The notes: generated by a model not told the origin, from the sequence alone. 64,000 bases of DNA from Acidimicrobiia bacterium (GCA_035292605.1 DATDPT010000069.1:56599-120598), one strand, 5' to 3'; shown: positions 3,085 to 45,163, numbered from the stretch's first letter. Translations and numbers: made by a program.

Positions 3085-3351
3085 TCAGGATGCATTGACC
3101 CGCCGCAGGACGGCCAGGTAGTGGACCTTGTCGGTGATACCAGTAGCTGCGACGCGGCCTCCAGGGCTGATCCAGCCGGTGGTGAGCGGTGCGGCGGTGA
3201 TCTGGTCGATCTCCCATCCTTTTGCGGCGAGGCCGTTGATCTTGTCGATCACTTCTTCGCCGACGGGTGGCGTCGTCTCGCCGAGGCGGCCGCCGGCGGT
3301 GCTGGTGGCGCTGCCTTCCCACCACAAGTAGGTGTATTCGAAGGTGGTCAT
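3085..3351 (-). CDS. Hypothetical small protein
   Basis: Internal Met (MTTFEYTYLWW...) preceded by GGAGAAGAC, with a 4-nt overlap with the upstream T4CP stop. The long N-terminal extension in the ORF track is rejected. Confidence 0.45.
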   Translation of the reverse strand: MTTFEYTYLWWEGSATSTAGGRLGETTPPVGEEVIDKINGLAAKGWEIDQITAAPLTTGWISPGGRVAATGITDKVHYLAVLRRVNAS

Positions 3352-4715
3352 GTCTTCTCCTTTCTCTGTCGTGACGTGAGCGCAAACCGAGGAGGCTCGG
3401 GAGCCCTGGGGGCATCGAGCCAGCCGCCGAGGTGCCGCCACTGGGACTCTCGGTAGTAGGGGCGGAGCCGCACCTTGGCGGGTGGGGTGTTGTCGTGGAT
3501 GAGCACGGCGTGGCCAGCCGGGAGGGTGCGCAGCTCGCTGACGGGAGCGAGACGTTCCCACCTATGGGTCTCCGAGGTCGACGGCCCGTAGGAACCCTCA
3601 CTGACTGTCGTACTCACCGCCTGGCGCTCTCCGGCGAGATTGGAGAAGACCTCCAACAGCTCCGGGTCGGCCATCCCTGGGAGGAGCACACGGGCGACAT
3701 GGTTGTTGAGGATGGAGCGGGCGTTGTCCCGCCCCCACCGGCGGACAACCTGTCCGTAGTCCTGGAAGATGGTGACCAGCTGCACGTCCCGGGAGCGGAG
3801 GGTGGCGGCGTACTGGGGCAGCTTGGTCAGGGGTGCCGAGTTGGCGGCCTCGTCCAGCAGCAACAGCAGTGGCTTGTCGGCCCGGCGTCCCTGTTGCACG
3901 CGTTCCCCCACCCGGACCACAAGGGCGTCTATCAGCCCGACGAAAATCGGGCGGAGCTCGTCTTGGACGTCTTCGGTTCCGACGATGTAGAGGGTGTCGT
4001 CCGAGTCGAGGAGACTGTCGAAGTCGATGCCCGGCTGCTGGCGAGTGGACTGGACTCCAGCGCGGGTGGAGAAAACCTTGAGCGCTACCCGGGCGGTGGT
4101 GCAGAACGACAGCATGGTTTCCGCTGCGGTACCGACGGTGGCACCGCGCAAGGTGCGAGCCGCGATCTGGGCGTCATGGTCGTGCGCTCCGTCCAGTGTG
4201 GCGAGGGCCGTTCCGAAAGCGACTGTATGACCACCATCGAGAGAGGAGGTCCGAGAGCTCCGGGGGTCGGAGAGCCAGCCCATCATGTCCTCGATGCTTC
4301 GGCCACCGATTGCGGCGGCATGAAGCAGCGGACCCAAGAGGTCGGAGGCGGCCGACTGCCAAAAGTCGCCCTGGGTGACCGACATCAGGTCCGACAGCGA
4401 CACGAGATGGTGGGCGAGCCGGGTGGCCTTCTGAAAGTCAATGCATTGAGGCACCGGGTTCCAGCCGATGTGAACGGCACCGCCGACCGACCCGGTTGGG
4501 TCGTACACCCACGCCATCCGGTCGTGGCTCGACCGAACCGTGAGGGTGGTGTGGAGGATCTCGGAGGTGACCGAGCACACCACCGCCGGTCCGTCCCATT
4601 CCAGGACGTTTGGGATGGCGAAGGCCGAGGTCTTACCCGACCCGGGTGGACCGAACACCACAACCGATTCACGTTGCCGGGCGGCCACTAGTCGGCCTCC
4701 CATCCGGCCGATCAC
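3348..4715 (-). CDS. Type IV coupling protein (VirD4/TraG-like) ATPase domain
   Basis: Walker A VVFGPPGSGKTS, VYDPTGS (DPKGE-like), Walker B LLLLLDEAANS, IFQDYGQ. The GTG/ATG start is preceded by the strong RBS GGAGAGGAAGGA. The upstream part of the ORF-track frame is non-coding-like. Confidence 0.8.
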   Translation of the reverse strand: MIGRMGGRLVAARQRESVVVFGPPGSGKTSAFAIPNVLEWDGPAVVCSVTSEILHTTLTVRSSHDRMAWVYDPTGSVGGAVHIGWNPVPQCIDFQKATRLAHHLVSLSDLMSVTQGDFWQSAASDLLGPLLHAAAIGGRSIEDMMGWLSDPRSSRTSSLDGGHTVAFGTALATLDGAHDHDAQIAARTLRGATVGTAAETMLSFCTTARVALKVFSTRAGVQSTRQQPGIDFDSLLDSDDTLYIVGTEDVQDELRPIFVGLIDALVVRVGERVQQGRRADKPLLLLLDEAANSAPLTKLPQYAATLRSRDVQLVTIFQDYGQVVRRWGRDNARSILNNHVARVLLPGMADPELLEVFSNLAGERQAVSTTVSEGSYGPSTSETHRWERLAPVSELRTLPAGHAVLIHDNTPPAKVRLRPYYRESQWRHLGGWLDAPRAPEPPRFALTSRQRKEKT

Positions 4716-4740
4716 GATCCTTCCTCTCCGGGAGTGTGGT

Positions 4741-5163
4741 TCACGCCGCATCGGACGGCTCCTCCGCCTCGGCATGCGGCAGGTGCTGGTCGGACACGAG
4801 AAGGCCAGCCCTGCGCAGGTCGATCGTGGTGGCCCATTGCGCTCCCTCCTCGGCCAACCGCCCGAGCTTGAACAGCTTCCAAACCAACGGAGCGAATCCG
4901 GCCACCAGCACCACAGCAACGGCCCAGACCAGCCAGCTCGAGATGGACGGCTCCCAGGCACCACCCACGTCAGGGAAGGAGCGCAACAACGCGGCGACCC
5001 CCTCACCCCCGGTTCCGGGGAGTGAGGAACCGAGGATCGAACCGACCAGGATGCCGCTCCCCCACAACACGGCAACGCCTGCCAGACAGACGAGGGCCAG
5101 GGCGACGCCGGCTGTCTCGAGAGGAGATCGCCCGAGTCCGCCTCCATAGGGTCTACCGGTCAC
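4741..5163 (-). CDS. Membrane protein, probable N-terminal transmembrane module of the coupling protein (separate ORF)
   Basis: Different frame from the ATPase ORF. It has two hydrophobic helices (AGVALALVCLAGVAVLW..., WLVWAVAVVLVAGFAPLVW) and high GC3 in this frame. The GTG start is preceded by GGGAGG and the stop lies ~25 nt upstream of the ATPase-domain start. Confidence 0.5.
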   Translation of the reverse strand: MTGRPYGGGLGRSPLETAGVALALVCLAGVAVLWGSGILVGSILGSSLPGTGGEGVAALLRSFPDVGGAWEPSISSWLVWAVAVVLVAGFAPLVWKLFKLGRLAEEGAQWATTIDLRRAGLLVSDQHLPHAEAEEPSDAA

Positions 5164-6322
5164 GGCGGCCTCCCATGGCAGCGTTGGTGTCGATGAGTGG
5201 CCTCTCGATGTCGGTGACGATGTGCTCGACGACGGTGGACCGCCCACCGACCCTCCACAGCGCCTGGCCTGGAATGAGTCGCTGCACCACGGCGATCTCC
5301 TCCGGGGTAAGTCCGATCAGCTCACCGAGCGCGGCAGCCTGGTCGGGGGGTTGGCGGTACACGATGCGGGTTTCGGAGTCGGCCAGCAGCCCGTTGGCGA
5401 TGGCCCGGGTGTCCTCGTCGATGGAGCGGAGGTCGCCGAGGTGTTGGAGGACGGCGATGTAAGAGGCACCGTGCTCTCGGCTCATCTTGAAGGCGTACTT
5501 GGCCCACTCGGCAGTGGCGCGATCGGTGAGCAGCCTCCAGAACTCGTCCATCACCACCACCTTGGGTCGCAGACGGTCGGACCCCCACAGCCCGGTGATC
5601 CAGCCGGTGACGGCCACCATCAGCACTCGGAGGGTGTCGTCGTCGTGGCCGGAGAGGTCGACAAGGAGGTACGGGGTCGATGCGTCGACGGTCACCGTCG
5701 AGTCGCCGAACATCATCCGACCCGCGTGCGAAGAGGAGAGGGTGTGGAACCCGGCCACGAGATCGCGAACGTCACGGTCGGTGATAACCAGTGGGCTGGG
5801 CAGGTCCCCCGGGGAGGCGAGCCGTTCGGCGAGCTCCTCCAGGTTGCGCGCACCGTCGACGGCGGTTGCTGCGGTGACGGCGGCGGATTCGACCGGTGTG
5901 AGGGACCGGTTGAGAGCGGCCGAGGCCAGGGCGATGCCCATCCGTCCCCGGTCGCCGTGACTCAGCCCGTGGAATGGGTTGATCACTACTCGCCCCGGAC
6001 GGACCGGGTCCACCCCGAAGTAGGCGGCAAGGGGGAGACCTTCCCCCTTGGGATCGATGTGGCGGATCAGGTACCCGTGGGCGGCCATACGCACCGCCAG
6101 GCTCTTGACGAGAGTGGACTTACCTGAGCCCTTCGACCCGAGGACGAGCATCACCGGGTCGGTGACGATCCCCTGTTGGTAGGCCTGGAACGGGTCGAAG
6201 CAGAACGCCGACCCGGTATGGACGTCGAACCCGACCGGCACCCGGATCAGGCCTAGGGGACTGGGCGACTCCCAGGGGATGGCGCCCCGCAGATGGGCGG
6301 TGGTGGTGTTCACGCTGATCAT
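5153..6322 (-). CDS. VirB4/TrbE-like conjugative ATPase, C-terminal ATPase part
   Basis: Walker A LVLGSKGSGKSTL, IDPKGEG, Walker B VVVMDEFWRLL. An internal Met gives an ATGA overlap with the upstream gene. Confidence 0.8.
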   Translation of the reverse strand: MISVNTTTAHLRGAIPWESPSPLGLIRVPVGFDVHTGSAFCFDPFQAYQQGIVTDPVMLVLGSKGSGKSTLVKSLAVRMAAHGYLIRHIDPKGEGLPLAAYFGVDPVRPGRVVINPFHGLSHGDRGRMGIALASAALNRSLTPVESAAVTAATAVDGARNLEELAERLASPGDLPSPLVITDRDVRDLVAGFHTLSSSHAGRMMFGDSTVTVDASTPYLLVDLSGHDDDTLRVLMVAVTGWITGLWGSDRLRPKVVVMDEFWRLLTDRATAEWAKYAFKMSREHGASYIAVLQHLGDLRSIDEDTRAIANGLLADSETRIVYRQPPDQAAALGELIGLTPEEIAVVQRLIPGQALWRVGGRSTVVEHIVTDIERPLIDTNAAMGGRRDR

Positions 6323-7689
6323 CCGTCGACTCCTTTGTCGAGGCCCCGGCACAGGGGCAGCACCCAGGAGAGAGCGCGGAGCTGGCTTCCGCCGAGGACG
6401 GCGACCCGGCAGGAGCCGGCTACCGCGTTGGAGCGGACCGTCCCGCTGAGATCCTCAACCTCCTCCTCAGCCATCCCCGAGACTGCTACGGTTGCCAAAA
6501 GGCGGACCGGGACGTGTCCCTCGTTGAGTTCCCGTAGCTGACGGTCGAGCGAGTCCAGCTCTGCCTGCTTGCGATGGCGGCTCGCCTTGGCGGTCTCCAC
6601 CGCTGCCTGCGCCCGCCGGTAGGCCCAATCCAAGGAACGTTGGTGCGGCTCCGGATCGGCAGGGGCGATGAGGATGCTGACCACCCGGTTGCCTGCACCG
6701 GTGAGAAGCGGCGCCAGGAAACCGGAAGCCATCGGTCGCTGCGGCCACTGCCACAGCCACAGCAGCCGGTGCACGGTGTCGCCGACCGCCACGGTGTTCC
6801 ACTTCTCCTCTACACGGGATGGCTCAGGAAGATCACCAAGATCCGATGGCTGAGCCTCTCCGACACTCAGGACTTTGTGGAGGAGAGCGGTCCAATCGGC
6901 CGGAGCGAGAATCTCGGCCCGCAGCTGCTCGGGTGGCAGTTGGGCACCCAGGTGCTGCAGGGTGGAATGGAGGAGCCGCCCCACGGCTGCCTCCCCTCCT
7001 CTCCTCACCGTCCCCCTGGCGGCCGCGAGACCGAGCCGGACCACGAGGACGGTTTCTGTGTGGCGAACGTGAGTTGCGAGGTAGTAGGCCACTTCCTTCA
7101 AGACCTCGAGCCCGGGACCGTCGGCGGAGTCGGCGTCGCTAAGAAGGTGGTCGCCTCCGCCGTTCCTGCTTACGGTGAGAACTTGAAGACGGTCGACTGA
7201 TTCTGTGGGAATGGAGGTCACCACTCGAGCCCAGTCCTCGGCCGCCACCTCCCGGTCGGCTCTGCTCTGCAGCCAGGGGTCGCGGGTCGGGGACACCCTC
7301 ATGGCCGCCAGATACCTGCTGCGGTCCTTGACCACCCCCATCAACCCGTGCGGCAGCTCGCATCCGGTCACCTCCATCCCGGACAGCCACCTGGGTGGCG
7401 GACCACCATCCGAAGCGGTCCACTGTCTCCATCCCAGCCAGCCGCCCGCTAGATAGCGGAGGCCTAGGCCAACCCGGGTCCACGCCGGCGTCCCGGTCGG
7501 GTCGCGAAGGGTCAGCCCGCCAAGCACTGCAACGAGGACCAGAGCCGGGCCTCCCATCCCCGCCACCAGCATCAGGGCTGAGCACACCAGTCCGAGGACC
7601 GTCACCGAAGCCTGAGCCCATGAGTAGACGCGGAACGGCCCGCGTGGACCCCACTTGGGAAAGACGTGACCCCGCGGTTCCTCTGTCAT
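6319..7689 (-). CDS. VirB3/VirB4 N-terminal-like membrane-associated protein (SCO6880-like)
   Basis: 456 aa with N-terminal TM helices, directly upstream of and overlapping the VirB4-like ATPase part. The combined length of ~850 aa matches VirB4. Confidence 0.5.
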   Translation of the reverse strand: MTEEPRGHVFPKWGPRGPFRVYSWAQASVTVLGLVCSALMLVAGMGGPALVLVAVLGGLTLRDPTGTPAWTRVGLGLRYLAGGWLGWRQWTASDGGPPPRWLSGMEVTGCELPHGLMGVVKDRSRYLAAMRVSPTRDPWLQSRADREVAAEDWARVVTSIPTESVDRLQVLTVSRNGGGDHLLSDADSADGPGLEVLKEVAYYLATHVRHTETVLVVRLGLAAARGTVRRGGEAAVGRLLHSTLQHLGAQLPPEQLRAEILAPADWTALLHKVLSVGEAQPSDLGDLPEPSRVEEKWNTVAVGDTVHRLLWLWQWPQRPMASGFLAPLLTGAGNRVVSILIAPADPEPHQRSLDWAYRRAQAAVETAKASRHRKQAELDSLDRQLRELNEGHVPVRLLATVAVSGMAEEEVEDLSGTVRSNAVAGSCRVAVLGGSQLRALSWVLPLCRGLDKGVDG

Positions 7690-9627: not shown

Positions 9628-9968
9628 CAGCCACCTCCCCCGGGCCCGCACCTGATCGAGTCGAGATCGAGGTCGTGCACCTCGGCCTGGAACCCATGTC
9701 GACGATGGATCACCAACCGGATGGCGAACACAGCCGACAGGCCCGCCTGCCACGACGCGCCCCGCTGAGCCAGCAAGTAGTCGAGACTTCGGTTGACACA
9801 CACGAAGCGCACCCGCTGGGACCACCACCCCAACTCACCCACCATCAGGCCGCTGCGGGTTCGCCGTGCGGCCGCCACCTGCGCGAGCGTCCAATCCAGC
9901 TCCGTCAGACCCGCCCTCGACAGGGCATCTCGGGCATCCTCGAGAAGCGACTGGAGGGTTCGGGTCAC
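9627..9968 (-). CDS. Hypothetical protein
   Basis: 113-aa ORF with ATGA-type overlaps with both neighbours. Confidence 0.4.
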   Translation of the reverse strand: MTRTLQSLLEDARDALSRAGLTELDWTLAQVAAARRTRSGLMVGELGWWSQRVRFVCVNRSLDYLLAQRGASWQAGLSAVFAIRLVIHRRHGFQAEVHDLDLDSIRCGPGGGG

Positions 9969-10693
9969 CTCTCCCGCCTCCGTTCCATGCGAGGGGCCAT
10001 ATATCCGGCGGCCGCCACACCGATCACGGTGATGACCACGACCCAGGCGCTCAACACCGGGAGCTTGATCCCGGTGGAAGGCTCGGCACCGGCGACAGCC
10101 ATCCCGCCGTCCATCGCACTCGGTTCCCGCTGGGTGGCGAGTGCGGTCGGAGCGGTCGTCGTGGTCGACTCGGTGACCGTTGGTGGAGCGGTCGCCGGCA
10201 TGTCAGCAGGAATGGGAGGCTGATCCGCCGTAACCACCGTCCACACCTGCCAACGACCGTCGTTGAAGATCAGGTCGAAATCCCAGGCGAAGACCTGAGG
10301 GGAAAACCCAACGCGGGCAGCCTCCACCTTCGCCCACACCGTCGCCGTGGTCGAGTGGAGCCTACGAACACGGAGTTCGTGGACCTCCAGCCGGAAGGGC
10401 TCGGCACCAGCAGTGCCCTCCCACGCGACGGACTCTGTCTCAAACTGTCGCCATTGGGGGCTGTTCAATGCGAAGGAAGCGGCGAGCGCGGCCAAGTCCC
10501 CCGTCGTCGCGAACTGTGACCACTCGTCGAGCGCCTGGTGAACCAGTTGAGCCAGAGGATCTGGGACATCCTCGGATGCCGAGGCCGGGGTGCTCGTTGC
10601 CAACAGCAGAGCGGCCCCAGCCGCGAGGCCTGTGACGTACCGTAGGAGCCGTAACCGCGTGGTACTCCTGTGTAAGCTAGGGTTCCTCTGCAT
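9965..10693 (-). CDS. Secreted, C-terminally membrane-anchored protein
   Basis: Signal-peptide-like N-terminus (LAAGAALLLATSTPASASE), Thr/Pro-rich linker, and a C-terminal TM helix followed by RMERRRER. Confidence 0.5.
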   Translation of the reverse strand: MQRNPSLHRSTTRLRLLRYVTGLAAGAALLLATSTPASASEDVPDPLAQLVHQALDEWSQFATTGDLAALAASFALNSPQWRQFETESVAWEGTAGAEPFRLEVHELRVRRLHSTTATVWAKVEAARVGFSPQVFAWDFDLIFNDGRWQVWTVVTADQPPIPADMPATAPPTVTESTTTTAPTALATQREPSAMDGGMAVAGAEPSTGIKLPVLSAWVVVITVIGVAAAGYMAPRMERRRER

Positions 10694-10870
10694 TACTGGC
10701 TATTATATCATTATCTGTCGACTCTCTGCAACCGGCATGGCTACGTAACGTGGAGGACCTATCAAAGGCCCGACGTGATGCACTGGCGGCTCGAGGCGCC
10801 ACCACGAGAACCGACTGGATGTGCGCATCGCGCCGATGTTCCAGACGTCGCCGGCTCCCCTCCAACGTGA
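10694..10870. promoter_or_regulatory. AT-richer divergent intergenic region (putative promoters)
   Basis: Local GC drop (ctattatatcattatctgtcgact) between diverging minus- and plus-strand genes. Confidence 0.3.
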
Positions 10871-11446
10871 ATGCCAGGCAACCCCTCACAATCCTCGACG
10901 TACGATCAACCCGTGATCGGTGACGCCAATACCGCCACTCTGCCGAAAGACCACTGGGCAGCCTTGAAGACTTCCGTCGACGGGCTCATTGACGAGTTCA
11001 GCGAGGACATCGCGGGGCTGCTGCTCGACGAGGTCGCCTTCGAGCACACCTTCATGAGCAGCTACGTGCCGCCCCAGTTCACGTCGCGTTACACGGCCTT
11101 GTTCGCCAAGAAGATGCTCGTATGCTTGGTGACCGTGGGATGGAAGCTCGAACATCCCGGTCAGTGGCCACTGGCGTGTACCGGCGAGCAGCTCGCGCTG
11201 CGAGCCCTCATCGAGCGTGCCGAATCCCAGATGGAGCTAGACGGGCAAGCCTTTGACTTTGGCGACTTCGTGGAGCTGGCCTTCCAAGACACGGACCTCG
11301 ACATGCTCTTCGACCCGGCATGGGACGGCATCGAAGACTCGGACATCGCAGACCACCTCGGAGCCCGCCACCTGCATCCCGACCGATGGTTCGAACCCTT
11401 CTACGAGGGCATCCCAGTCCCCCCCTACGGGTCCGAAGGGACCTGA
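10871..11446 (+). CDS. Acidic hypothetical protein
   Basis: 191-aa Asp/Glu-rich ORF with no motif. Confidence 0.45.
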   Translation: MPGNPSQSSTYDQPVIGDANTATLPKDHWAALKTSVDGLIDEFSEDIAGLLLDEVAFEHTFMSSYVPPQFTSRYTALFAKKMLVCLVTVGWKLEHPGQWPLACTGEQLALRALIERAESQMELDGQAFDFGDFVELAFQDTDLDMLFDPAWDGIEDSDIADHLGARHLHPDRWFEPFYEGIPVPPYGSEGT

Positions 11447-11689
11447 GCGTCCTACCACCTGGTACTGATCCGAGCACCAATCGCGTAGGCGGTTCAGCGA
11501 TATGTCAGGGCAGCGCCGATTGCCGGTTAGGCAGCGGGTCCGAAGCGGTCGAATGAGTGGCTGAACCACATGTTATGTGCGGGGGTGCTAAGCGTGAGAA
11601 CGTTGAATCGGGGATTCCGGCTTCAGGAAGGCCACCCCAACGGGATTCCCCGCCGCTCGGGTCGAAGGGACCAGAGCCCCTGAGGACCG

Positions 11690-12196
11690 TTAGCGGCGTG
11701 CGAACTTCTCCAGTGGCTCAATAATTGCGTCGGCCGTTGCGTTGAGCCAGCGACCGAACTCTCTCCACTCGAACCCCTCGTCCAGGAACTCGAACGGATT
11801 AGCGCCTCGGTACTCGCCTTGCCGTAAGTGAGAGATGTAGCTCCCGGACAGCAGCGCACCGGCCGCCGTCATGAGGTCGTGGGCGGGGTCCTCGATCTTC
11901 GCTCTGAGTTTGGGGCGGAGTCGGCCGATGAGGATCGGTTGATCCAGCCTTAGGCGTCGCTCTGTCTCGACCCACTCGTCTTGGGTCGAGTCGTCGGGTT
12001 TGCCCCCGCCCCCGAGGTTGCGTTGCCAGGCTCTTGCAAGGTCGGATGCGAGACGTCCGGCGTCCTGTGCCCAGCGGACAACATCTCGGGCTTCGTCTTG
12101 TCGACGGTGTCGCTTGCCTTGGCTGAGACGTCGCCATCCCATCCCGACTGCGACGAGTGCGATGCCGATGCTCAAGTACGGGAGTACGTTGCTCAT
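11690..12196 (-). CDS. Membrane-anchored hypothetical protein (third gene of the HEPN operon)
   Basis: N-terminal TM helix (LPYLSIGIALVAVGMGW); ATGA overlap with the upstream gene. Confidence 0.5.
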   Translation of the reverse strand: MSNVLPYLSIGIALVAVGMGWRRLSQGKRHRRQDEARDVVRWAQDAGRLASDLARAWQRNLGGGGKPDDSTQDEWVETERRLRLDQPILIGRLRPKLRAKIEDPAHDLMTAAGALLSGSYISHLRQGEYRGANPFEFLDEGFEWREFGRWLNATADAIIEPLEKFARR

Positions 12197-13254
12197 GACT
12201 CGCTGTGGAAGCGCTCAAGCTGTTCGTCTCGTTCTCGGAGGCCGAGCGCAACCGCAAAGGGGTAGTTCATGTAGGTGGTTGCCCATTCGTGGCCCCGGTA
12301 GTAGTCCAGGAGCCGGAGGATGTCGCTGACGGCTTGGAGGGTCTCGTCGACGAATTCGGTGGTCGTCTCGATCCCGGTGTGCGTGACAAGGTTTCGGTTC
12401 GCGACCGCTTTCTTCACAACTGCGAGTGTCTCGTTGGGAGGCGGCATTACGTTCCCGGATGGGAGCGGGTTCTTCACGGGGAGTTTCGGCAGGTACTCGC
12501 GGAGCATCCTCTCGATCGGTGGAGACGGCGCATTCATCGCCAGCCACTCGGCGTCGGGTACCAGATCGACGACGAAGCTTTTGAAGCCGACTTCGAGGGC
12601 GACAACCGCGACGATTAGCGCGCCGCGGCGATTTGACGCCGAGAGTTCCGAGGCCTCGGCGAGTAACTCGAAGCCCAAGGGCTCCGAGGATTCGGAGTCG
12701 ACCATCGGCTGGACATACCGCTTGAAGTAGTCATCGTCGAATCGGACATGCGCCGTGGCCCAAGTCCGCCCCGAACCATGCGACGGGATGGTGTGCCAGT
12801 TCTCGCCGTCGAACGAGAATTGGAACCCGCGGGTAGAGAAGCCTCTGCGGCTGGGTGGGTAGGTATCCGTTCGCCAGCGGTAGATGTTTGCAACCGCACG
12901 GGCTGCGGTCGACATCTCGTCTCTCAGCATCTCGGCATACGAACGGAAGTATTCCGGCAGCACACTGGGAGACGGGATTCGGTTGTCGAGATACTCACCG
13001 GGCTCGACTCGCGCGTCGAGGGTTTCATAGGGCTCCGCGTCGTTCGGAAGCACGTCGGCAGCTAGGTTCTTGAATACCTGGAGGACTCGGTCATTCGATT
13101 CGAACTCTGTTGTGGCGATGAGTACGAGGGTGTCTTTGGTGTCCTCCGATGCGCTTGCGTGAACGGCGATGTTTCGGGGCCCGCCGAATTCGATTGTGGC
13201 CTCGCCTTCCCCGGTAGGGGTGTTGTGCACGTTCAGGTGATACCGGGCGAACAT
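12193..13254 (-). CDS. HEPN-motif protein (putative RNase/abortive-infection component)
   Basis: C-terminal AVANRNLVTHTG matches the Rx4H HEPN signature, in a helical C-terminal region. Confidence 0.55.
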   Translation of the reverse strand: MFARYHLNVHNTPTGEGEATIEFGGPRNIAVHASASEDTKDTLVLIATTEFESNDRVLQVFKNLAADVLPNDAEPYETLDARVEPGEYLDNRIPSPSVLPEYFRSYAEMLRDEMSTAARAVANIYRWRTDTYPPSRRGFSTRGFQFSFDGENWHTIPSHGSGRTWATAHVRFDDDYFKRYVQPMVDSESSEPLGFELLAEASELSASNRRGALIVAVVALEVGFKSFVVDLVPDAEWLAMNAPSPPIERMLREYLPKLPVKNPLPSGNVMPPPNETLAVVKKAVANRNLVTHTGIETTTEFVDETLQAVSDILRLLDYYRGHEWATTYMNYPFAVALGLRERDEQLERFHSES

Positions 13255-13256
13255 GG

Positions 13257-14063
13257 CTATTCGGCGGCAGGCATAAGGGGGCTTAGGAGGTCCGCGATTT
13301 GGGCCTCGGTCTCACTGGAGGCCGCCTGCCACGACTCGATGTTCCGACCTAGGCGCTCGACGATGACGTCGCCCGAGAGTTGAAGAAGGGCGAGCGCTGC
13401 GCCGAGTCGGCGGGCCCTGTCTTTCGGTTGGTTTGGTCCCCCGAGGTCGAAGTGCTCCTCGGTGTTGCTGCGCACGACGGTGCCGAGCGTGACGGCGGAG
13501 CCGTGAGCGGGGTCGCTCTCCCAGCGGAAGAGACCGTGGAGGTCTTCTCGCCCGAGGTCTTCCCACATCTTCTTGGCGTTGGGGAGACCACCGACCTTTC
13601 GGCCCAACTTCGCTTCTTGGTCGGCGATGAGCTTCTCTTGGTTGGCGAGTTGTTCCCACTCGTGCGGCAGTACCTGCCGACCAGTGCTCCCCTGGTATTC
13701 GTACTTGGATCGCGTCTGTTGGATGCCGTCCTTCCAGAAGATCACGGCCTGCTCGAATTGTCGCTCGGCGTCATCAGGTGCGTCGAGCCAAAGGATGATG
13801 CGGGTCAGCTCCGCAAGCCCCCGGACGAGCTGGCCCGCCTGCTCGGCGTAGAACGGCAGCGCCACAAGGAGAGCGACGCCGTAAACCTGCCTGACTACGA
13901 AGACGGCCTGTCGTGCGAGGAGCTGCTGGGTCGGTGTGTCGGCCGCGATCTTCTCGTTGGCCAACAGCTCGGCAAGGTGGTCGGCGAGACCCTTCAGTGC
14001 ATCGCAAGCGGCAACGATCCTCTCGTCTTCCGTCTTGCTGATCGATGCTCCCTCGCTCTTCAC
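13257..14063 (-). CDS. Hypothetical protein (first gene of the HEPN operon)
   Basis: 268 aa, tightly packed with the downstream gene; no motif. Confidence 0.5.
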   Translation of the reverse strand: MKSEGASISKTEDERIVAACDALKGLADHLAELLANEKIAADTPTQQLLARQAVFVVRQVYGVALLVALPFYAEQAGQLVRGLAELTRIILWLDAPDDAERQFEQAVIFWKDGIQQTRSKYEYQGSTGRQVLPHEWEQLANQEKLIADQEAKLGRKVGGLPNAKKMWEDLGREDLHGLFRWESDPAHGSAVTLGTVVRSNTEEHFDLGGPNQPKDRARRLGAALALLQLSGDVIVERLGRNIESWQAASSETEAQIADLLSPLMPAAE

Positions 14064-14372
14064 AGCGTGATGTTACGAACCCGGCGTTCAGGCGGGCGCC
14101 TGGTCGCTCCTCAATCGGCATAGCCAATCAACAGAATCCCCGAGCCGAGCGGACGGCGATTCTCGATATCGATCCTGTCCACCAAGGTGATTCGTCGGAT
14201 CGGGGTCTGGCGCCGACGACGTCATGAACGCTGCGAGAACGCTCGTGCGGTGATCTGCTCGGTCGGAGCCGTTGGTCCCGGCGACCCATGGTCACGACGC
14301 GGGCCGAGATCTCGCTCGATATCGCCCGCATCCACCTGTGCTCCACACCGGCACTATTGAGCGGGCGGGGGC

Positions 14373-15491
14373 ATGCTGATGGCGTCACCCGCATACCGAG
14401 TGACCGAAGACCAAGTACCTTCGGAGACCAAAGGTGGCTTGCGAGTGAGCTCTATGAAATGGTCTTTGACGAAAGAAGGGGAAGTCGTCCCAATTGCAGT
14501 CCGGATCGATCTTCCGTTCTGCCTGTACCTGGAGAACGGTACGTATGTAGTCGACGTTGATGGCATGCCAATCCAGATCGACACCGAGAAGATCTGGCGA
14601 AACTCGGAAGGGTCCTCCGATGATGACGCTGTTGCTGATCAGCAAACCTTCTTTACCGAGGCACACCTGATCGGTGGGCCCATAGGCGGCGACCCCGCGC
14701 AAGCGGCACATCTCGTTGCCAAGAACATGGAGTTCGCTGGGGACCGGACCGGCTATTTCCGTTACACACGGATGGCCATCGGCCTGACCTATCCGGCCGA
14801 CACTAAACCGCATGAACGGGGTGCTCGTATCGCACAAATGGCCGTGGATTCGGCGAACACGCTCATCGACAGCTACCGCTATGCAAGCGGTCGGGCGTAC
14901 GTTCCCCGCGTGCGTGTGGCAGACCTTCGGTTTATGGAGATCCAATATCCCCTGACGGGTGAGGTTGAGTTTGTTGGATTGTTCACCAAAGGGCTCAGGG
15001 TTGCCGTCGTTAACGATTCAAAGAGCGTCCACGCCGAGGTTCGTAGCATGGCCGAGGCTGGGGAAACCGTGCCGATTCATGCGGATCTCCTCCTTGCCGC
15101 AATCAGGGCACTGTGGGAGACCGACTTCCGCTTGGCAGCGATTGAGGCGTTCGCTGCCCTAGAAGTCTTCGTCGACAACCGGCTCTACACACTGCTATTC
15201 GACTCGGGTGCCATGAATGAGACCGAGTTCGATGACTTCATATACGAGGAAGGTCAAAACCTCGCTAAGAAAATGAAGAAGCCTCTTCGCCGAGCAGGCG
15301 TGCCGAGCCCAGCCGACAACACAGCACTATGGGAGGCATGGATAGCTGCCAACAAACTCCGGAACAGGGTCGTACACACGGGTTATCAACTGTCAGAAGA
15401 AGAAGCAAGGTCGATCGTTAGAACTGTCCAGCAGCTACTGGAGGAGATGGGTGACGAAGGTATGCACCTGGCCGAGGAGATGCCCGCGTAG
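14373..15491 (+). CDS. HEPN-motif protein, divergent paralogue-like partner
   Basis: C-terminal ANKLRNRVVHTGY is the same RNxVxHTG motif as the 12193..13254 product. Confidence 0.55.
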   Translation: MLMASPAYRVTEDQVPSETKGGLRVSSMKWSLTKEGEVVPIAVRIDLPFCLYLENGTYVVDVDGMPIQIDTEKIWRNSEGSSDDDAVADQQTFFTEAHLIGGPIGGDPAQAAHLVAKNMEFAGDRTGYFRYTRMAIGLTYPADTKPHERGARIAQMAVDSANTLIDSYRYASGRAYVPRVRVADLRFMEIQYPLTGEVEFVGLFTKGLRVAVVNDSKSVHAEVRSMAEAGETVPIHADLLLAAIRALWETDFRLAAIEAFAALEVFVDNRLYTLLFDSGAMNETEFDDFIYEEGQNLAKKMKKPLRRAGVPSPADNTALWEAWIAANKLRNRVVHTGYQLSEEEARSIVRTVQQLLEEMGDEGMHLAEEMPA

Positions 15492-16054
15492 TCAGACCGC
15501 AACGGCAGGCGTTCTCTCCACGTTCGGTCACCGTTGGGTCACAAGCCCGGGGAGCGCCTGAACCCACCACTCATCCAGAAAACGGACCTAGACCAAGTCG
15601 AGGAAACCTCAGGCTCTGAGGTTGCCACCGCTGCAAGCGCGTGCGCTGGACCCACCGGGGAGATCGCCTTCTTCAACGTCGGATCCGAAGTCACCGTCAC
15701 ATCCAACTAGCGCCGATCAACTGGTCTGCTTCGAAACCGCTCACATCTGAAACCGCTCGAGAACGCAGCACTTAGTGTGTTGGCATGGCCTCCTCGCTCG
15801 ACATTGATGACACCGCCGAGTCTTACCCGGCGCCAAGAGCAGGGAGGCCCCCCGCTCTTCATGGCATCACTGATGAATAGCCACCAGGTGGCTCGAAACG
15901 GGCTGGTTTGGGATCTCGTGTCAACAGGCGCAATGGCTCGCTTCCTGTCGGCCGGCGCGTGGTGTGGCTGGCCTCCTGGGAAAAGACACCGGGAAACCGC
16001 TCTCTCCCTTTGGCCGAGAGGATCGGAGGCTCGATTCATGACGCCCTTAGGCTG

Positions 16055-17107
16055 CTAGGTGTCGGTAAGAGCGACAGCCTGCAGAGAACTAACGGACGGA
16101 CCGTCACCGCCTATGCGTTCCGCCGCGTCTTGAACTGCCCGCACAATGTTGTGGTATCCGGTGCAGCCACAGAGGTTGCCTGCTAGGCCCTCCCGGATTT
16201 CGGCTTCGCTGGGAGACGGGTTGTCCATCAGAAGACCAACGGCTTGTAGGATCATGCCAGGAGTGCAGAAACCGCATTGGACCGCATGCATTCGCCAGAA
16301 GCTGTCTTGGACCGGGTGGAAACCTCCGGAGGGCGCTAGGCCCTCGATTGTTGTGATCACGCAGTCCTGGGCCTGTACCGTCAACATCATGCACGCCTTG
16401 ACGGGGTGGTCGTCCAGGAGCACCGTGCAGGCGCCGCAGTAACCGCTTTCGCAGCCGATGTGTGATCCTGTCAGGCCGAGGTCTTCCCTCAGGAAGTGGA
16501 TGAGGAGCAGGCGAGCCTCGACCTCGCGTTCGACCCGTTGCCCGTTGACTGTCATGGAGACCACATGCCTCCGCGAGGGGTCCTGTCCAGTGTGAGGAGT
16601 CCTGGGCGGTCCGAGAATCGCCAGCACCTCTTGGCCCAATGGAGTGATCTCCCATCCATTGACACGCCCGTATCGGGTCTTCGAAACGACACCGACATCC
16701 AAAAGCTGCCTACCCGCTCGGCTAACTGCGCTCTCGTCGTTGAGCCCAAGCCTTCGACCGACCTCGGTGTTGGAGATCCCAGGTCCGTGCGCCACCACGG
16801 ACAGGAAGCGATGCTTGTAGGTGTTCGGCTCCAACCGTGCAGCCAAGGACGTCCCTCGCATGCGGTCCTCGTAGGCACGGACCATTTCGGCAAGTGCCCG
16901 CGCATGAGAGGACGCGACCCCGCTGGACCGCGCCGCAATGGATGCGAGGCGATCGCTAAGTTGCTCAGGAGGATTGAACGAGCCGAGGAGAACGGCGATG
17001 AGAGCCTCTGCGAGAGCACGGAGCCGCCCAGCTCCAATATCGAGGTCTTCCTCGCTCATGTCTAAGAGGCGATGCAGTCGTTCTAGGGCAGCGTCCACGT
17101 CCTTCAT
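16055..17107 (-). CDS. Fusion protein: winged-HTH (MarR-like) domain plus CoxS/XdhC-type [2Fe-2S]-binding domain
   Basis: The C-terminal ~150 aa carry both CoxS cysteine clusters (GCESGYCGACTV and CGFCTPG...CGCTGY). The N-terminal ~190 aa contain a winged-helix segment (NTEVGRRLGLNDESAVSRAGRQLLDVGVV). Confidence 0.7.
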   Translation of the reverse strand: MKDVDAALERLHRLLDMSEEDLDIGAGRLRALAEALIAVLLGSFNPPEQLSDRLASIAARSSGVASSHARALAEMVRAYEDRMRGTSLAARLEPNTYKHRFLSVVAHGPGISNTEVGRRLGLNDESAVSRAGRQLLDVGVVSKTRYGRVNGWEITPLGQEVLAILGPPRTPHTGQDPSRRHVVSMTVNGQRVEREVEARLLLIHFLREDLGLTGSHIGCESGYCGACTVLLDDHPVKACMMLTVQAQDCVITTIEGLAPSGGFHPVQDSFWRMHAVQCGFCTPGMILQAVGLLMDNPSPSEAEIREGLAGNLCGCTGYHNIVRAVQDAAERIGGDGPSVSSLQAVALTDT

Positions 17108-17155
17108 TGTTTGTCACCCGGCTCGTCAGGTCCACTCTAGGAAAGTGTCAAGTAA

Positions 17156-18538
17156 ATGACAAGTGATTTCCGTCAAGATCCTGGCGACGCGTTCTGTCAA
17201 CTGTGGGACCACCATCAGCGTTCCTGGACCATCGGCAAGATCGAAGAGTGGACGGCGTCACCGAGATTCAAGGAAATGGAGGACGAACTTGCGAACGCCA
17301 TCATCACGCAGGGGTCCATCCCAGATGCAGCGATCAGAGAGATTGGTGAGGATGCATACCATGCATTCCTGCTCGCCGCTGCAATCAATCGCGCCCTGTA
17401 CGCGATCCATCCCCGGTATAGGCGCCGAGACATTTCTACACGTTTGGACTGGCTGAGAGACCGATACCATCAATCCGGGCGCCTAAACTCAGACGAGGTG
17501 GAAGGTGCCCTGCTCTTCCGTCTTGTTCAAACGGATCGCGTCGGGCCCGGCAGAGCAGATTGGATCGCAGACTGGTTCACGAACCTCCGGCGCCTCTCGG
17601 ACGAGCAGTGGGAGGATCTCGACCTCGTCTCACTTCTAATCGACCGCGACTTCGTCAGGGACGTGAGAGAGCGCAATAGGAAGTTGCGCGTCGGATGTCT
17701 CGCCTTGGTCGAAGACCTTGACGCTTTCGATATCACCGTGCGCGACACATTCAACTTAGCAACCGAACAGAAAGCGCTCAGATATCGAATCGGGCTCAAG
17801 GCCGGAGCCATCACCAAGGACCTCATTATGAAGGCAGTTCATGCTCTCGATGCCGCATTAGTCGACATCGCTCTCCTACCAGAGTCCACTCTCGATGATC
17901 GAGTGTGCCAATTGTGGATCGACGTAGTCCGCACCCACAGACCAGATCCGGGCAACCCGCTTCGCTGGATCGTTGCCGGTACCGGTCACATGGCTGATGG
18001 TCTCCGGCGCCGCAATACAGCAGTTGTCATTCATCGGCAAAGTGGCATAGAGCTGGCCAGACAGGACAAGACCGCGCGCTACACCATTCCACAGGGCACC
18101 GCCACTAAGTGGGGTATGGACACGCTGACTGGCGCAGACGAGTACTGGGAGGACATCGAACCAGGGACCACCGTCGTGGGCCTGGAGTCAGAAGCCGGCC
18201 GAATCGCCGTCGTGATTTGCGAGAGCTTGAGTCGCCCTGTACCAGAAACCGACAGGCTTCATCGACTGGGCGTAACGCACATTCTCGTACCCGTCCTCGA
18301 TCGTGAGCTCGGCGATGATCGTTGGGAGGTCCACTATTCCCGCGAAAGAGTTCGTGACATAGGCTGCTCGATCGTCATTGCCAACAGTCTCGCCATAGCT
18401 CGGCGCCGCCAAGCGCGACTCATCGAAGGCGCCCCACCACCTGGGTCCATCGTATGCAGCATGTCGCGAACCAGCACCTCGAGCTACCAGTTGAAGACCG
18501 CTGAGGGATGTCTCGACGTCCAGATCCACGAGGTGTAG
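17156..18538 (+). CDS. Hypothetical protein
   Basis: 460-aa ORF in a moderately lower-GC stretch; no recognisable motif. Confidence 0.4.
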   Translation: MTSDFRQDPGDAFCQLWDHHQRSWTIGKIEEWTASPRFKEMEDELANAIITQGSIPDAAIREIGEDAYHAFLLAAAINRALYAIHPRYRRRDISTRLDWLRDRYHQSGRLNSDEVEGALLFRLVQTDRVGPGRADWIADWFTNLRRLSDEQWEDLDLVSLLIDRDFVRDVRERNRKLRVGCLALVEDLDAFDITVRDTFNLATEQKALRYRIGLKAGAITKDLIMKAVHALDAALVDIALLPESTLDDRVCQLWIDVVRTHRPDPGNPLRWIVAGTGHMADGLRRRNTAVVIHRQSGIELARQDKTARYTIPQGTATKWGMDTLTGADEYWEDIEPGTTVVGLESEAGRIAVVICESLSRPVPETDRLHRLGVTHILVPVLDRELGDDRWEVHYSRERVRDIGCSIVIANSLAIARRRQARLIEGAPPPGSIVCSMSRTSTSSYQLKTAEGCLDVQIHEV

Positions 18539-18918
18539 GACCGTCCCGATGATCAACGCGCCCTGACGTGACCTCAGACTCCCCATCACCTGGTCCGGAG
18601 CGATCACACGCCATTCCCTACACCGAAGAACGGCACCTCGGTGCCATCGCATCTTGGCCGTGGTCAGTTCGGTGCAGATAAAGCGGAACCGGCACGAGAA
18701 ATGGCGCGACGCATTGACGCTGCCGACTCGCGTGTAGCGATGGACGAGGCACGGCTCCGGATGTCACAAGCCAGCGTTGCGAGATTGCTCATCAGACGCT
18801 CAGCGCTTTAGGAACAGAAGTCATGCTCCCCGGATTATCACCGAGGGGTGCGACGAGAAACGGCGCAGGTGACCGCAGAGGGCATCTCGGCGGCAAGGCA
18901 GCACGCTGAGAGCGCGGG

Positions 18919-19776
18919 CTACCCCGAGAGCCGGGACCGCACCTCGACAACCTCGTAGGTGTTGGGGACGTTCTCAGCGAGAGTGCTCGCGAAGCGGGCC
19001 CAGGTAGTCCAGACGCCGCCGACCACCATGACCTGGTACTCGCCAACCCAGAGCAGGTCGAGGCTGACAGGGTATCCGGCGTTGTACCCGGCCGCGGTGG
19101 AACTGGTGTTGTAGACGTGGCGGGCCGCCGGCGACTCGGGTGAGCCGCCCATGCTTGGCGCATCGTCCCATACGGCGGCGAACACCTGGTAGCTGGCCTC
19201 TCCGGTGTCCCAGGTAACCGACTCGGTCCAACCTCTCCCCCGAACGCCGAACTCGATGCCGGTCACCGGTTCCACCCAGATGGCGTCGATCGGTCCCACT
19301 TGGGATGGGTTGGAGTACCAGAGCCACGTCTCCAACCCGGTGAGGCCGACGCTGACTGAGGTGTCGGGGTTCGACTCCCACCGCGGGTCCGGCAGCGCCC
19401 GCACCGCCGAGGCGATGGCCTCCCAGATTGTGTTCTCGGCTTCGTCGAGGTCGATGCACTGGGTCTGGGTCTCCACCACCTCTCCATCCATGATCTGATC
19501 TCGAAGGGCGAGCACAAGCCCGCTATTGATGTCGATCAGCCCGCCGCCGACTACACCACCTCCACCACACTGGCCGACGATTTGCCACGTCGTCCAGTAG
19601 CTGGTCGCCGAGCCTTCTCCTCCACCTTCACCGTGGTCCTCGCACACCAGGCCAAGATCGGAGTCGAAGTAGCACTCGTGGTTGGCGACGGCAGGCGTGG
19701 CCGGAACCGCGACGACAACCCATGCCACGATCATCAACGCCGCTAGCCGACGACTTCGAGATTCTCCAGAACCCAT
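18919..19776 (-). CDS. Secreted hypothetical protein
   Basis: Signal peptide (LAALMIVAWVVVAVPATPAVA), Gly-rich, distal end of the Tad operon. Confidence 0.5.
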   Translation of the reverse strand: MGSGESRSRRLAALMIVAWVVVAVPATPAVANHECYFDSDLGLVCEDHGEGGGEGSATSYWTTWQIVGQCGGGGVVGGGLIDINSGLVLALRDQIMDGEVVETQTQCIDLDEAENTIWEAIASAVRALPDPRWESNPDTSVSVGLTGLETWLWYSNPSQVGPIDAIWVEPVTGIEFGVRGRGWTESVTWDTGEASYQVFAAVWDDAPSMGGSPESPAARHVYNTSSTAAGYNAGYPVSLDLLWVGEYQVMVVGGVWTTWARFASTLAENVPNTYEVVEVRSRLSG

Positions 19777-36755: not shown

Positions 36756-37973
36756 ATGACGGGTACCCCCAACGATGTGGCGACGCCGATCGTCGATATC
36801 AGGCCCCAAACTCCGATTGCACAATTGGACCGCTCGCGGTTCGGAGCCGAGGACTCGTTCAAGCCTGAGACGGTCGCGCCCGTCGTAGGCATGTCCCTGA
36901 CCTTCATCCGCAAGGTCGTCGGCCATCGCGGTTGGCTTTCCGGTGAGGACGTCCTTGCCCTGCTTGATCAGGACGCCTTCCATGAAACGTTCGTACCGCG
37001 AAGCAAGATTCTTGACTATCTCAAGGGATGCAACCAAGGCGACTCCGAATCGGTTGATGAGGTTCCAAACCCGGAGTCATGGGATCTGAGGCTCGGCAAC
37101 GCCCTCGACCTTGTGAGGGAGGTCACGGCGTCGTCTGTCAATTGCGTGGTGACCTCGACTCCCTACTGGGGGCTTCGTATCTATGAGGACACACAGGTGG
37201 TGGCATGGGCCGACGGCGAAGTCTGCGCCTACGGACACGAGCAGACCCCGGAAGGCTTTGCTCGGCACACGACCGAGACCCTATTGGCACTATCCCGGAT
37301 ATTGACCGATGACGGGTCGATCTGGTGGAACGTTATGGACTCATTCAATACGCGCACTCAGATCCGTGAGTCCGCAGCGGAGGCACTGCGTGCAATGCAA
37401 GGCATGGACTCCAGAAAATGGGGGGAGTACACGGCAAGACGGTACTCCGCTGGGCATTCGTACTTGAAGGACGGCGAGCAATGCCTGATCCCTCAGATGA
37501 TCGCCGAGCGAGCAAGCCGAGCGGGTCTCTACGTCAAGACGGTAATCACCTGGGCAAAGCGCTCCAGCATGCCCGAACCCCAGAATTCGCGGGTGTCGCG
37601 CAACTTGGAGTACGTGCTGCATATCACGAAGCAGCGCACTCCAAAGCTCGCGCGCCAGCCATACCACGACGCCGACCCCGAATTCGGTGGACGAAATAAC
37701 GGGTGGGAGTCTGAAAAGCTGTCTGACGTCTGGGTCTTGAGCACGTCATCGGGCGGCAATGGTCACGGAGCCCAATTCCCGACAGCACTTCCCGGCCGGT
37801 GTATAGCGCTATCGACCGAGCCAGGTGACGTTGTGTTGGACCCCTTCGTCGGCACGGGGACGTCAGGGATCGCAGCATTGCATCACGGCTGCTCATTCAT
37901 TGGGTTCGACACGTCCCAAACGTACTTGGCGATCGCCAAGGAGAAGCTCGGCAGCGTCAACGAAGGTCATTAG
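36756..37973 (+). CDS. Beta-class DNA amino-methyltransferase (N4-cytosine or N6-adenine)
   Basis: Motif IV variant VVTSTPYW before motif I DPFVGTGTSG (the beta permutation). RBS GGAAGGAG 8 nt upstream of the ATG. Confidence 0.8.
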   Translation: MTGTPNDVATPIVDIRPQTPIAQLDRSRFGAEDSFKPETVAPVVGMSLTFIRKVVGHRGWLSGEDVLALLDQDAFHETFVPRSKILDYLKGCNQGDSESVDEVPNPESWDLRLGNALDLVREVTASSVNCVVTSTPYWGLRIYEDTQVVAWADGEVCAYGHEQTPEGFARHTTETLLALSRILTDDGSIWWNVMDSFNTRTQIRESAAEALRAMQGMDSRKWGEYTARRYSAGHSYLKDGEQCLIPQMIAERASRAGLYVKTVITWAKRSSMPEPQNSRVSRNLEYVLHITKQRTPKLARQPYHDADPEFGGRNNGWESEKLSDVWVLSTSSGGNGHGAQFPTALPGRCIALSTEPGDVVLDPFVGTGTSGIAALHHGCSFIGFDTSQTYLAIAKEKLGSVNEGH

Positions 37974-45069: not shown

Positions 45070-45163
45070 GCTCTCAACCCCCCGCAACCTGTGGTTGCAA
45101 CTGTGTACGGTCAAACCGGTCGGTGGGCGAGAGGCGGGTGACTGTCATGGACGGCGACCGGGG

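Follow-up and report, generated by a model that had tools for sequence, protein, structure and literature searches.

Immune effectors in which an HEPN ribonuclease (RNase) is fused to a sensor domain are well known. One of them, ApeA, was reportedly introduced as a single-gene anti-phage system by Gao et al. in 2020. Two sequence hallmarks define HEPN domains (Anantharaman et al. 2013, PMC3710099): an Rx4-6H motif whose Arg is immediately followed by a polar residue, in most cases N, D or H, and, upstream of it, an acidic residue that is usually part of Ex3[KR]. The mechanism of ApeA is taken here from a recent preprint (bioRxiv 10.64898/2026.01.26.701840); according to the cryo-electron microscopy study of ApeA, the catalytic residues of HEPN domains sit on the core helix H3. 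Here we analyzed a 64,000-nucleotide stretch of DNA from an Acidimicrobiia bacterium (GCA_035292605.1, DATDPT010000069.1:56599-120598), termed the window, which by its gene content is an integrative conjugative element (ICE). At positions 11690-15491 it carries a four-gene locus, in which two proteins of 353 and 372 residues share a C-terminal RNxxxH motif. By analogy to described systems, we consider it probable that the locus contains two immunity modules from one superfamily, independent of each other and each made up of a single protein, an autonomous sensor-effector whose HEPN RNase would act through abortive infection.

Gene organization of the locus

The locus comprises a minus-strand operon of three genes and one divergent gene, as defined by calls of open reading frames (ORFs):

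11690-12196, minus strand: 168-residue protein, third gene of the operon
12193-13254, minus strand: 353-residue protein, second gene of the operon
13257-14063, minus strand: 268-residue DUF5677 protein, first gene of the operon
14064-14444: intergenic region between the operon and the divergent 372-type gene
14373-15491, plus strand: longest ORF of the divergent gene, 372 residues
14445-15491, plus strand: likely extent of the 372-type gene, from GTG 14445, ~348 residues

An earlier note, made from this sequence, had reported four ORFs at these positions and three tightly coupled genes on the minus strand, which our calls bear out. The same four genes were called by independent gene callers in three other assemblies of this element, and all four ORFs display the coding-type pattern GC1 > GC2 < GC3 in DNA of roughly 62% GC. 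As read from the sequence, the three minus-strand genes are translationally coupled: a spacing of 2 nt separates the stop codon of the 268-residue gene from the ATG of the 353-residue gene, the stop codon of which overlaps the start of the 168-residue gene as ATGA. The 372-type gene probably starts at GTG 14445 and encodes ~348 residues, because an AGGTGG is located 7 nt upstream, the homologues begin at the matching position, and the coding-type GC3 is missing from the stretch of the ORF upstream of this codon. In the NCBI annotation, the 353-residue gene is represented by VJA46_05885, a 240-residue C-terminal fragment, whereas the homologues support the full ORF with its conserved N-terminus.

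The divergent intergenic region contains a 22-nt direct repeat (14162-14183 and 14315-14336) that includes the palindrome TCGATATCGA. Its two copies, which make up a two-copy family, are 77% identical and 153 bp apart; the repeat could be an operator or a product of chance. No sigma-70-like promoter was found in this region, and the promoter and terminator signals in the locus are not above background. In positions 10500-19000, Rfam recognized nothing at E<=0.1, and a tandem-repeat search of the same interval gave nothing meaningful. On these results we rejected an RNA antitoxin or other non-coding RNA in the locus, including the kind of tandem-repeat or structured RNA gene that lies beside the toxin gene in AbiF-type and ToxIN-like HEPN systems.

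Two distant paralogues with a probable HEPN-type domain

Comparison of the two motif-bearing proteins revealed that they are distant paralogues. Pairwise blastp aligned 139 C-terminal residues at 28% identity (E 6e-4), and hhalign of the two family profiles covered ~200 columns with a probability of 88.7-93% and E-values of 2.6e-6 to 3.3e-7. In addition, the 353-type protein of contig L003 is recovered with a plain hidden Markov model (HMM) built from the 372 family (loci with homologues are denoted by L and a number). In a joint alignment of both families (n=47), the Arg and His of the motif are invariant and the upstream Glu is nearly invariant. The RNxxxH motif is rare in the window, with 14 occurrences in ~128,000 six-frame residues, and it occupies equivalent positions in two neighbouring real proteins; therefore, the motif pair is not a matter of chance. 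The domains and motifs are as follows:

353-residue protein, residues ~1-170: N-terminal α/β domain followed by a linker helix (AlphaFold2 model)
353-residue protein, residues ~190-320, 12295-12687, minus strand: C-terminal HEPN-like helical domain (AlphaFold2 model)
353-residue protein, E221-V-G-F-K225, 12580-12594, minus strand: E-x3-K motif in the second core helix (translation)
353-residue protein, R287-N-L-V-T-H292, 12379-12396, minus strand: predicted HEPN catalytic motif (translation)
372-residue protein, ~15021-15452, plus strand: HEPN-like domain (AlphaFold2 model)
372-residue protein, R330-N-R-V-V-H335, 15360-15377, plus strand: predicted HEPN catalytic motif (translation)

The AlphaFold2 models of the 353-residue protein (pLDDT 86, pTM 0.77) and the 372-residue protein (pLDDT 75, with the C-terminal domain at 85-95) share the same architecture. 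Each has an N-terminal β-sheet with helices, followed by a long helix ending in a conserved RWR/YRY motif, a β-hairpin and a helical C-terminal domain. In the C-terminal domain, the first two core helices are followed by an insertion of two short helices, then by a third core helix with RNxxxH at its end and by a fourth. In the 353-residue protein, RNLVTH sits at the C-terminal end of the helix spanning residues 274-293, and in both models the motif is at the end of the third core helix, the same placement as in ApeA. In the 353 family, core helices 2 and 3 are separated by a conserved insert, LVPDAEWL...PSPP...EYLP.

Both hallmarks of HEPN domains are present in the two proteins. RNLVTH of the 353-residue protein and RNRVVH of the 372-residue protein each have a polar residue directly after the Arg, and the upstream acidic residue is found as EVGFK in the 353 family and as a conserved Glu in the 372 family. 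Across 150 representatives, the 353 family shows no variation at N288 and E221, and the conservation of R287, H292 and K225 is 90% or higher; the RNxxxH motif is present in nearly all the genome-derived members. In the 372 family, R330 and H335 are invariant and E264 aligns with the conserved upstream Glu, with an Asp at the position of the Lys.

Profile and structure searches returned weak matches, of which the best and the recurring profile matches are all to HEPN families. In Pfam, HEPN_RiboL-PSP matched five of 37 members of the 353 family (E 0.0026-0.02) and HEPN_Apea one of 37, the E-values for HEPN_Apea ranging over 0.03-0.05 in all searches. The family consensus sequences gave HEPN_Apea at E 0.03, RiboL-PSP at 0.02 and, for the 372 family, Ymh at 4.4e-4. 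The five PADLOC models touched by the 372 family all contain HEPN (RTasHEPN, Csx1/Csm6 and CARF_HEPN), with sub-threshold scores of E 5e-4 for the Csx1/Csm6 HEPN against the 372-residue protein and 0.0025 for RTasHEPN. The top sequence match in the Protein Data Bank (PDB) is the CRISPR-associated protein 8y7f, aligned on RNsVaHgG with an E of 0.025. Structural similarity search of the PDB with the model of the 372-residue protein using Foldseek gave the highest probability, 0.97, to 2q00, with a TM-score of 0.62 on the target over 128 columns; it is labelled in the output merely as a Sulfolobus solfataricus protein, and we take it to be of the HEPN family. The further matches are 2hsb (HEPN, probability 0.75), Csm6' 8pe3 (0.57), 1o3u (HEPN, 0.44) and, equal to the latter, the nucleotidyltransferase-like 3c18 (0.44).

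We predict that both proteins contain an HEPN-type RNase domain, because of the R-N-x3-H motif, the upstream Glu, the helical C-terminus with the motif at the end of the third core helix, the weak profile matches confined to HEPN families and the HEPN structures ranked highest in probability by Foldseek for one of the models. The assignment is probable rather than proven since no single match is statistically significant. The earlier note had proposed that the two proteins share a C-terminal signature and that it is the Rx4H motif of HEPN RNases; the former is confirmed by the alignments above, and the latter has become probable. The modelled fold is compatible with HEPN, and the genomic context is mobile.

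A large 353 family of mostly solitary genes

A word-indexed search retrieved 56 relatives of the 353-residue protein. With an exhaustive profile search, 2,007 representative clusters were obtained at E<=1e-3, and 1,139 of these lie at E<=1e-30. The clusters are defined at 50% identity, and the family has at least 2,000 of them. Nearly all of the best 150 of the 2,007 clusters are ~340-360 residues in length. Members are distributed over Proteobacteria, Acidobacteriota, Chloroflexi, Planctomycetota, Nitrospinae, Actinobacteria and others. By contrast in size, the 372 family has just 11 homologue clusters. Neither protein of the window matches Pfam, NCBIfam or PADLOC at conventional thresholds, and the family of ~345-residue proteins is apparently a distinct, undescribed variant of sensor-fused HEPN RNases.

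The 353-type genes are mostly solitary, a pattern drawn from 19 loci in genomes, a plasmid and several loci in metagenomes. All-against-all blastp of the neighbours at 22 loci revealed no recurrent neighbour family. The following loci have neighbours of defence or mobile type:

L003: DNA methylase with NERD and UvrD-type proteins
L004: MmeI-type restriction-modification (R-M) enzyme and prophage genes
L007: CRISPR-Cas genes, cas1-cas2-cas4/cas3, type I-like
L008: STAND NTPases
L020: HsdR
L041: Methylobacterium plasmid with a recombinase, VapBC and a MobF relaxase

At the DNA level, the locus has no match in reference plasmids and phages. Protein searches found one match in reference plasmids, from Methylobacterium, and none in reference phages.

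A tandem pair of 353-family paralogues in adjoining reading frames was observed in a metagenome-assembled genome of Pirellulaceae (L025, 4692-5726 and 5727-6923). The first copy keeps RNxxxH and ExxxK, and the second copy of 398 residues is devoid of both; it may be an inactive regulatory partner.

The 372-type gene was never found with the operon outside this element in tblastn and HMM searches covering 41 loci. On another contig, the gene is flanked by those of HicB and a SIR2 protein, and a phage-type integrase is close by. On two independent metagenome contigs, a canonical ApeA of 465 residues with ApeA_NTD1 and HEPN_Apea (L001, 5056-6453; L002, 4033-5430) lies convergent to a homologue of the 372-type gene at a distance of ~220 bp.

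A clade-specific operon with a DUF5677 protein

The first gene of the operon encodes a 268-residue protein that matches PF18928 (DUF5677) with an E of 1.4e-5 over 130 residues and 138 of 166 model positions; its 25.7 bits fall just short of the gathering cut-off of 27.1. A relative with 45% identity exceeds this cut-off with 33.3 bits, and precomputed Pfam matches exist for a protein identical to the 268-residue protein and for several homologues. The DUF5677-353 pair was found in the window and at L003, L032, L033, L034-37 and L038. The state of the operon in this close clade (60-75% identity) is listed below:

Window: DUF5677 present, 2-nt gap; 353-type present; 168-residue gene intact, ATGA overlap
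L032: DUF5677 present, 2-nt gap; 353-type present; 168-residue gene intact (76% identity), ATGA overlap
L033: DUF5677 present; 353-type cut by the contig end; contig ends before the position of the 168-residue gene
L034-37: DUF5677 present, 2-nt gap; 353-type present; 168-residue gene frameshifted, hydrophobic N-terminus lost
L038: DUF5677 present; 353-type in two high-scoring segment pairs, possible frameshift; 168-residue gene frameshifted, hydrophobic N-terminus lost
L003: DUF5677 present, 1-nt gap; 353-type present; 168-residue gene absent
L009 (75% identical): DUF5677 absent; 353-type present; 168-residue gene absent

Only in two contexts, the window and L032, is the 168-residue gene intact. 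It has no family match in Pfam, NCBIfam or PADLOC. The earlier note had described its product as membrane-anchored; the N-terminal hydrophobic segment does exist in the window and L032, but it is not a conserved feature among the remaining homologues. Judged by the neighbourhoods, the robust unit is a clade-specific pair of a DUF5677 and an HEPN-like gene, with the third gene optional and the 372-type gene a separate module. The four genes had also been regarded as one system with a pair of HEPN proteins. This view is not sustained, given that the 372-type gene is never beside the operon elsewhere and the 168-residue gene is poorly conserved; what was taken for a pair resolves into two paralogues that are independent single-gene modules, and in a narrow clade a DUF5677 partner accompanies one of them.

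Some DUF5677 relatives have no HEPN-like gene nearby: those of L010 and L039 adjoin serine recombinases, and that of L040 adjoins a methyltransferase of the Eco57I/MmeI type. The location beside serine recombinases is consistent with the reported enrichment of DUF5677 next to these enzymes (PMC12632615). Our literature search found no published report of DUF5677 paired with an HEPN-like gene. As a candidate third HEPN-like protein of the locus, DUF5677 was rejected: it does have an R-x6-H stretch, RWESDPAH, but a Trp follows the Arg and the His is not present in all homologues. In profile comparisons, DUF5677 resembled neither of the two HEPN-like families nor any chain in the PDB. We infer that the DUF5677 protein is an accessory regulator, sensor or inhibitor of the 353-type enzyme in one clade, and not a required partner of the family.

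A proposed mechanism and its alternatives

We propose that each protein consists of an N-terminal α/β domain, putatively the sensor or regulatory part, and a C-terminal HEPN RNase domain. By analogy to ApeA, DARNA and other HEPN defence proteins, the proteins would form dimers by contact of their HEPN domains, with a composite R/H active site as the result, and the N-terminal part would keep them inactive until a cue of infection or invasion arrives. Once activated, they might cut tRNA or other cellular RNA in a metal-independent manner, and this cleavage would lead to growth arrest, namely abortive infection. As cargo of the ICE, the genes would protect the host and thereby the element. In one narrow clade, which includes the window, the 353-type gene has entered into translational coupling with a DUF5677 gene that precedes it, and in some cases also with a small gene that follows. 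A role in defence or abortive infection is reasonable because the genes are part of the conjugative cargo and their relatives reside in defence islands and mobile elements. The solitary nature of the 353 family speaks against a classical toxin-antitoxin pair and against any partner that would be obligatory. Of the earlier suggestion of a defence or addiction module, the defence part is likely.

Several points weigh against two autonomous immunity modules. No known HEPN family or structure is matched at conventional significance, the best profile E-values being 4e-4 to 5e-4. Foldseek against the PDB returned no HEPN structure for the 353-residue model, and the five top structures for the 372-residue model are non-significant (E 0.13-0.9, the HEPN ones at E >= 0.2). 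Other loci of the 353 family have neighbours of housekeeping appearance, such as GGDEF-EAL, PALP and a TrkA-domain protein, and the apparent association with defence islands is an observation from several individual loci. RNase activity, toxicity and phage protection of the family members are predictions. As for the DUF5677 partner, a tested ORF of this type from the Enterococcus group conferred no phage defence (PMC12632615). Moreover, the tight DUF5677-353 coupling is kept down to 60% identity, which a purely single-gene model leaves unexplained.

A further reading is one that we hold to be doubtful: the DUF5677 protein, the 353-residue sensor-HEPN protein and the small third protein might constitute an as yet undescribed multi-component abortive-infection system, and the ~345-residue family as a whole a new widespread single-gene HEPN immunity family. 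Equally doubtful are its particulars, that DUF5677 would sense the invader or restrain the RNase, and that the family would have its own type of sensor domain and its own trigger.

Alternatively, the minus-strand operon might be a toxin-antitoxin or addiction module that stabilizes the element, with the 353-residue protein as toxin, DUF5677 as antitoxin, the 168-residue protein as accessory and the 372-residue protein as a second, orphan toxin, which we consider unlikely. In its favour, homologues of 60-75% identity keep the 2-nt gap and the ATGA overlap, a state seen in at least five distinct contexts; antitoxins are typically encoded by the first gene of an operon; this operon is situated on an ICE; and HEPN toxins with protein antitoxins are well known, as in HepT/MntA and RnlA/RnlB. 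However, neither DUF5677 nor a recurrent neighbour was found in the 19 genome loci, the plasmid, L004, L007, L008 and L009; as these family members have no partner, the HEPN protein therefore cannot be constitutively toxic. Conversely, DUF5677 relatives stand alone at L010, L039 and L040. In addition, the 268-residue DUF5677 protein is large for an antitoxin and lacks a DNA-binding or nucleotidyltransferase domain, and the 372-type gene is partnerless everywhere examined.

That a DUF5677 sensor, the 353-residue RNase effector and a 168-residue membrane effector or anchor make up one multi-component defence system, perhaps with the 372-residue protein as heterodimer partner, seems quite improbable to us; this is in essence the four-gene system of the earlier note. 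The three-gene order does recur in the window, L032, L034-37 and L038; HEPN enzymes are dimeric, and the tandem pair at L025, with its second copy devoid of the motifs, provides a paralogue pair. The operon and the 372-type gene also share the divergent intergenic region with its repeated palindrome-containing element. Nevertheless, the 372-type gene is unlinked to the operon at any other locus, the 168-residue gene is frameshifted with loss of its hydrophobic segment (L034-38) or missing (L003, L009), and the 353 family is otherwise solitary. Least probable is a non-catalytic or non-HEPN helical domain with a function outside RNA cleavage and defence, e.g. in regulation or conjugation: the lack of any significant match to an HEPN model or structure and the ordinary metabolic neighbours at some loci would agree with it, but the Arg, Asn, His and upstream Glu are invariant across hundreds of divergent sequences, as in catalytic sites, the weak matches converge on HEPN families only, the distribution is patchy over many phyla in mobile contexts, and the genes are located outside the conserved blocks of type IV secretion system (T4SS) and Tad genes, in a lower-GC segment between them.

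The conjugative element and its other cargo

Two autonomous immunity modules would find themselves among the cargo of an ICE. The context of a conjugative element, already recognized in the earlier note, is confirmed by the following genes of the window:

3348-5147: T4SS coupling protein
TraG/VirB4-like ATPase
VanY-type peptidase
~19-26 kb: Tad/T2SS-F genes
41752-45114: TrwC relaxase-helicase
49233-50474: tyrosine integrase
Two DNA methylases and a McrB-like AAA_5 protein

Seven genes at 10.8-18.6 kb, including the locus, are located between the T4SS and Tad blocks and have a GC content below that of the flanks; the segment is therefore cargo-like. Within it, a 460-residue protein (17156-18538, plus strand) and a 191-residue protein (10871-11446, plus strand) flank the locus; they have no match in Pfam, NCBIfam or PADLOC, and our searches retrieved them only from copies of this element. 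Another gene (16055-17107, minus strand) encodes a 350-residue protein that combines a ~170-residue N-terminal region with a complete [2Fe-2S] small subunit of the xanthine-dehydrogenase/aldehyde-oxidase type. Its N-terminus has weak winged-helix-like matches to the C-terminal part of PADLOC CARF3 models, its C-terminus matches Fer2 and Fer2_2 (E 2e-30), and no gene of a molybdopterin or FAD subunit adjoins it. With this architecture, odd for ICE cargo, the protein could be a redox-sensing regulator.

Elsewhere in the window, at 37957-40796 (minus strand) and 36756-37973 (plus strand), a McrB-like AAA_5 protein of 541 residues is followed by a 417-residue protein without match, and an N6/N4 DNA methylase adjoins them; the ICE may thus also carry a restriction module of McrBC type together with a methylase. 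At 230-1330, there is in addition a C-5 cytosine methylase. Just past the tyrosine integrase, where the element has its edge, a 1,806-residue protein (51052-56472, plus strand) combines a Sacsin-type (HATPase-like) domain at the N-terminus with NOV_C at the C-terminus; its gene likely serves in defence or conflict as well. Among the conjugation genes, a 456-residue protein (6319-7689, minus strand) has a domain similar to EccE of the type VII/ESX translocon, and a 242-residue protein (9965-10693, minus strand) a weak match to TrbC/VirB2 pilin; together they suggest an actinobacterial-style transfer apparatus that mixes T4SS and ESX-like parts.

Comparison with known systems

If the two modules act as proposed, several thousand proteins unseen by PADLOC 2023, Pfam and NCBIfam would join ApeA, DARNA and the Csm6-type proteins among the sensor-fused HEPN RNases. 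Their N-terminal domain resembles none of the known sensors, and thus could recognize a new infection signal. The clade-specific coupling would be the first functional lead for DUF5677, a domain enriched next to recombinases in defence islands, and the locus would illustrate stacked defence cargo on ICEs of the poorly studied Acidimicrobiia. No concept is changed thereby; it is an extension of a well-established theme.

Similar to the minus-strand operon, the type II/VII toxin-antitoxin system HepT-MntA and RnlA-RnlB/LsoA-LsoB combine an HEPN RNase toxin with a protein partner in a tight operon on mobile elements. RnlA and LsoA are also ~350 residues in length, with N-terminal α/β domains before the HEPN domain. 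Compared to these systems, most members of the 353 family have no partner gene. Neither an MNT nucleotidyltransferase domain nor an RnlB-like gene was found among the neighbouring ORFs of the locus, and no RnlA or LsoA structure is among the matches listed by Foldseek (50 per model).

The CRISPR ancillary nucleases Csm6 and Csx1 resemble the proposed architecture of the window proteins in that an effector HEPN domain is fused to an N-terminal sensor and is activated by a ligand. Their R-N-x-V-x-H-G helix aligns with that of the window proteins in the matches to 8y7f, the PADLOC model and 8pe3. However, the window proteins have no CARF domain and no obligatory linkage to type III CRISPR systems, and their N-terminal fold is unrelated by Foldseek.

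Ymh (PF09509), which is found in R-M neighbourhoods (PMC3710099), and RiboL-PSP-HEPN (PF18735) are stand-alone HEPN families with links to R-M and defence contexts. They share the R-N-x3-H motif with the window proteins, and also a helical core that in the latter is a predicted HEPN fold, their matches to the 372-family consensus and the 353-family members, respectively, all being below the Pfam gathering cut-offs. They differ in the absence of both the ~190-residue N-terminal α/β domain and the LVPDAEWL...PSPP...EYLP insert.

ApeA, like the window proteins as predicted, is a single polypeptide with a non-catalytic N-terminal part and a C-terminal HEPN domain, in which Rx4H is located on the core helix H3; as with the 353 family, its gene mostly stands by itself, within defence islands and mobile elements. 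HEPN_Apea is one of just two Pfam matches of the 353-family consensus, and the member A0ABV9EPE4 carries the automatic UniProt name 'ApeA N-terminal domain-containing protein'. The differences are nonetheless clear. The window-type proteins are shorter (~345 residues) than the ApeA of L001 (465 residues) and Ec2ApeA (>580 residues), and their models have a β-sheet N-terminal domain, whereas ApeA is described as predominantly α-helical with N, Mid and HEPN domains. ApeA_NTD1 (PF18862) gave no match at E<=10 with the N-terminal halves of the window proteins and of the consensus, or with P0063 and P0061. HEPN_Apea (PF18739) matched neither window protein and scored 15 bits with the family consensus against a cut-off of 24.4. 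No match to the PADLOC ApeA models was obtained for the window proteins, 37 members of the 353 family and 11 members of the 372 family, and profile-to-sequence hhalign against the single ApeA of L001 was not significant. This control ApeA passed with 88.5 bits to ApeA_NTD1 and 53.6 bits to HEPN_Apea; membership of the window proteins in ApeA was therefore ruled out, by the missing ApeA_NTD1, the sub-threshold HEPN_Apea and the lack of a PADLOC match. Although not members of ApeA, the window proteins plausibly work in the same way.

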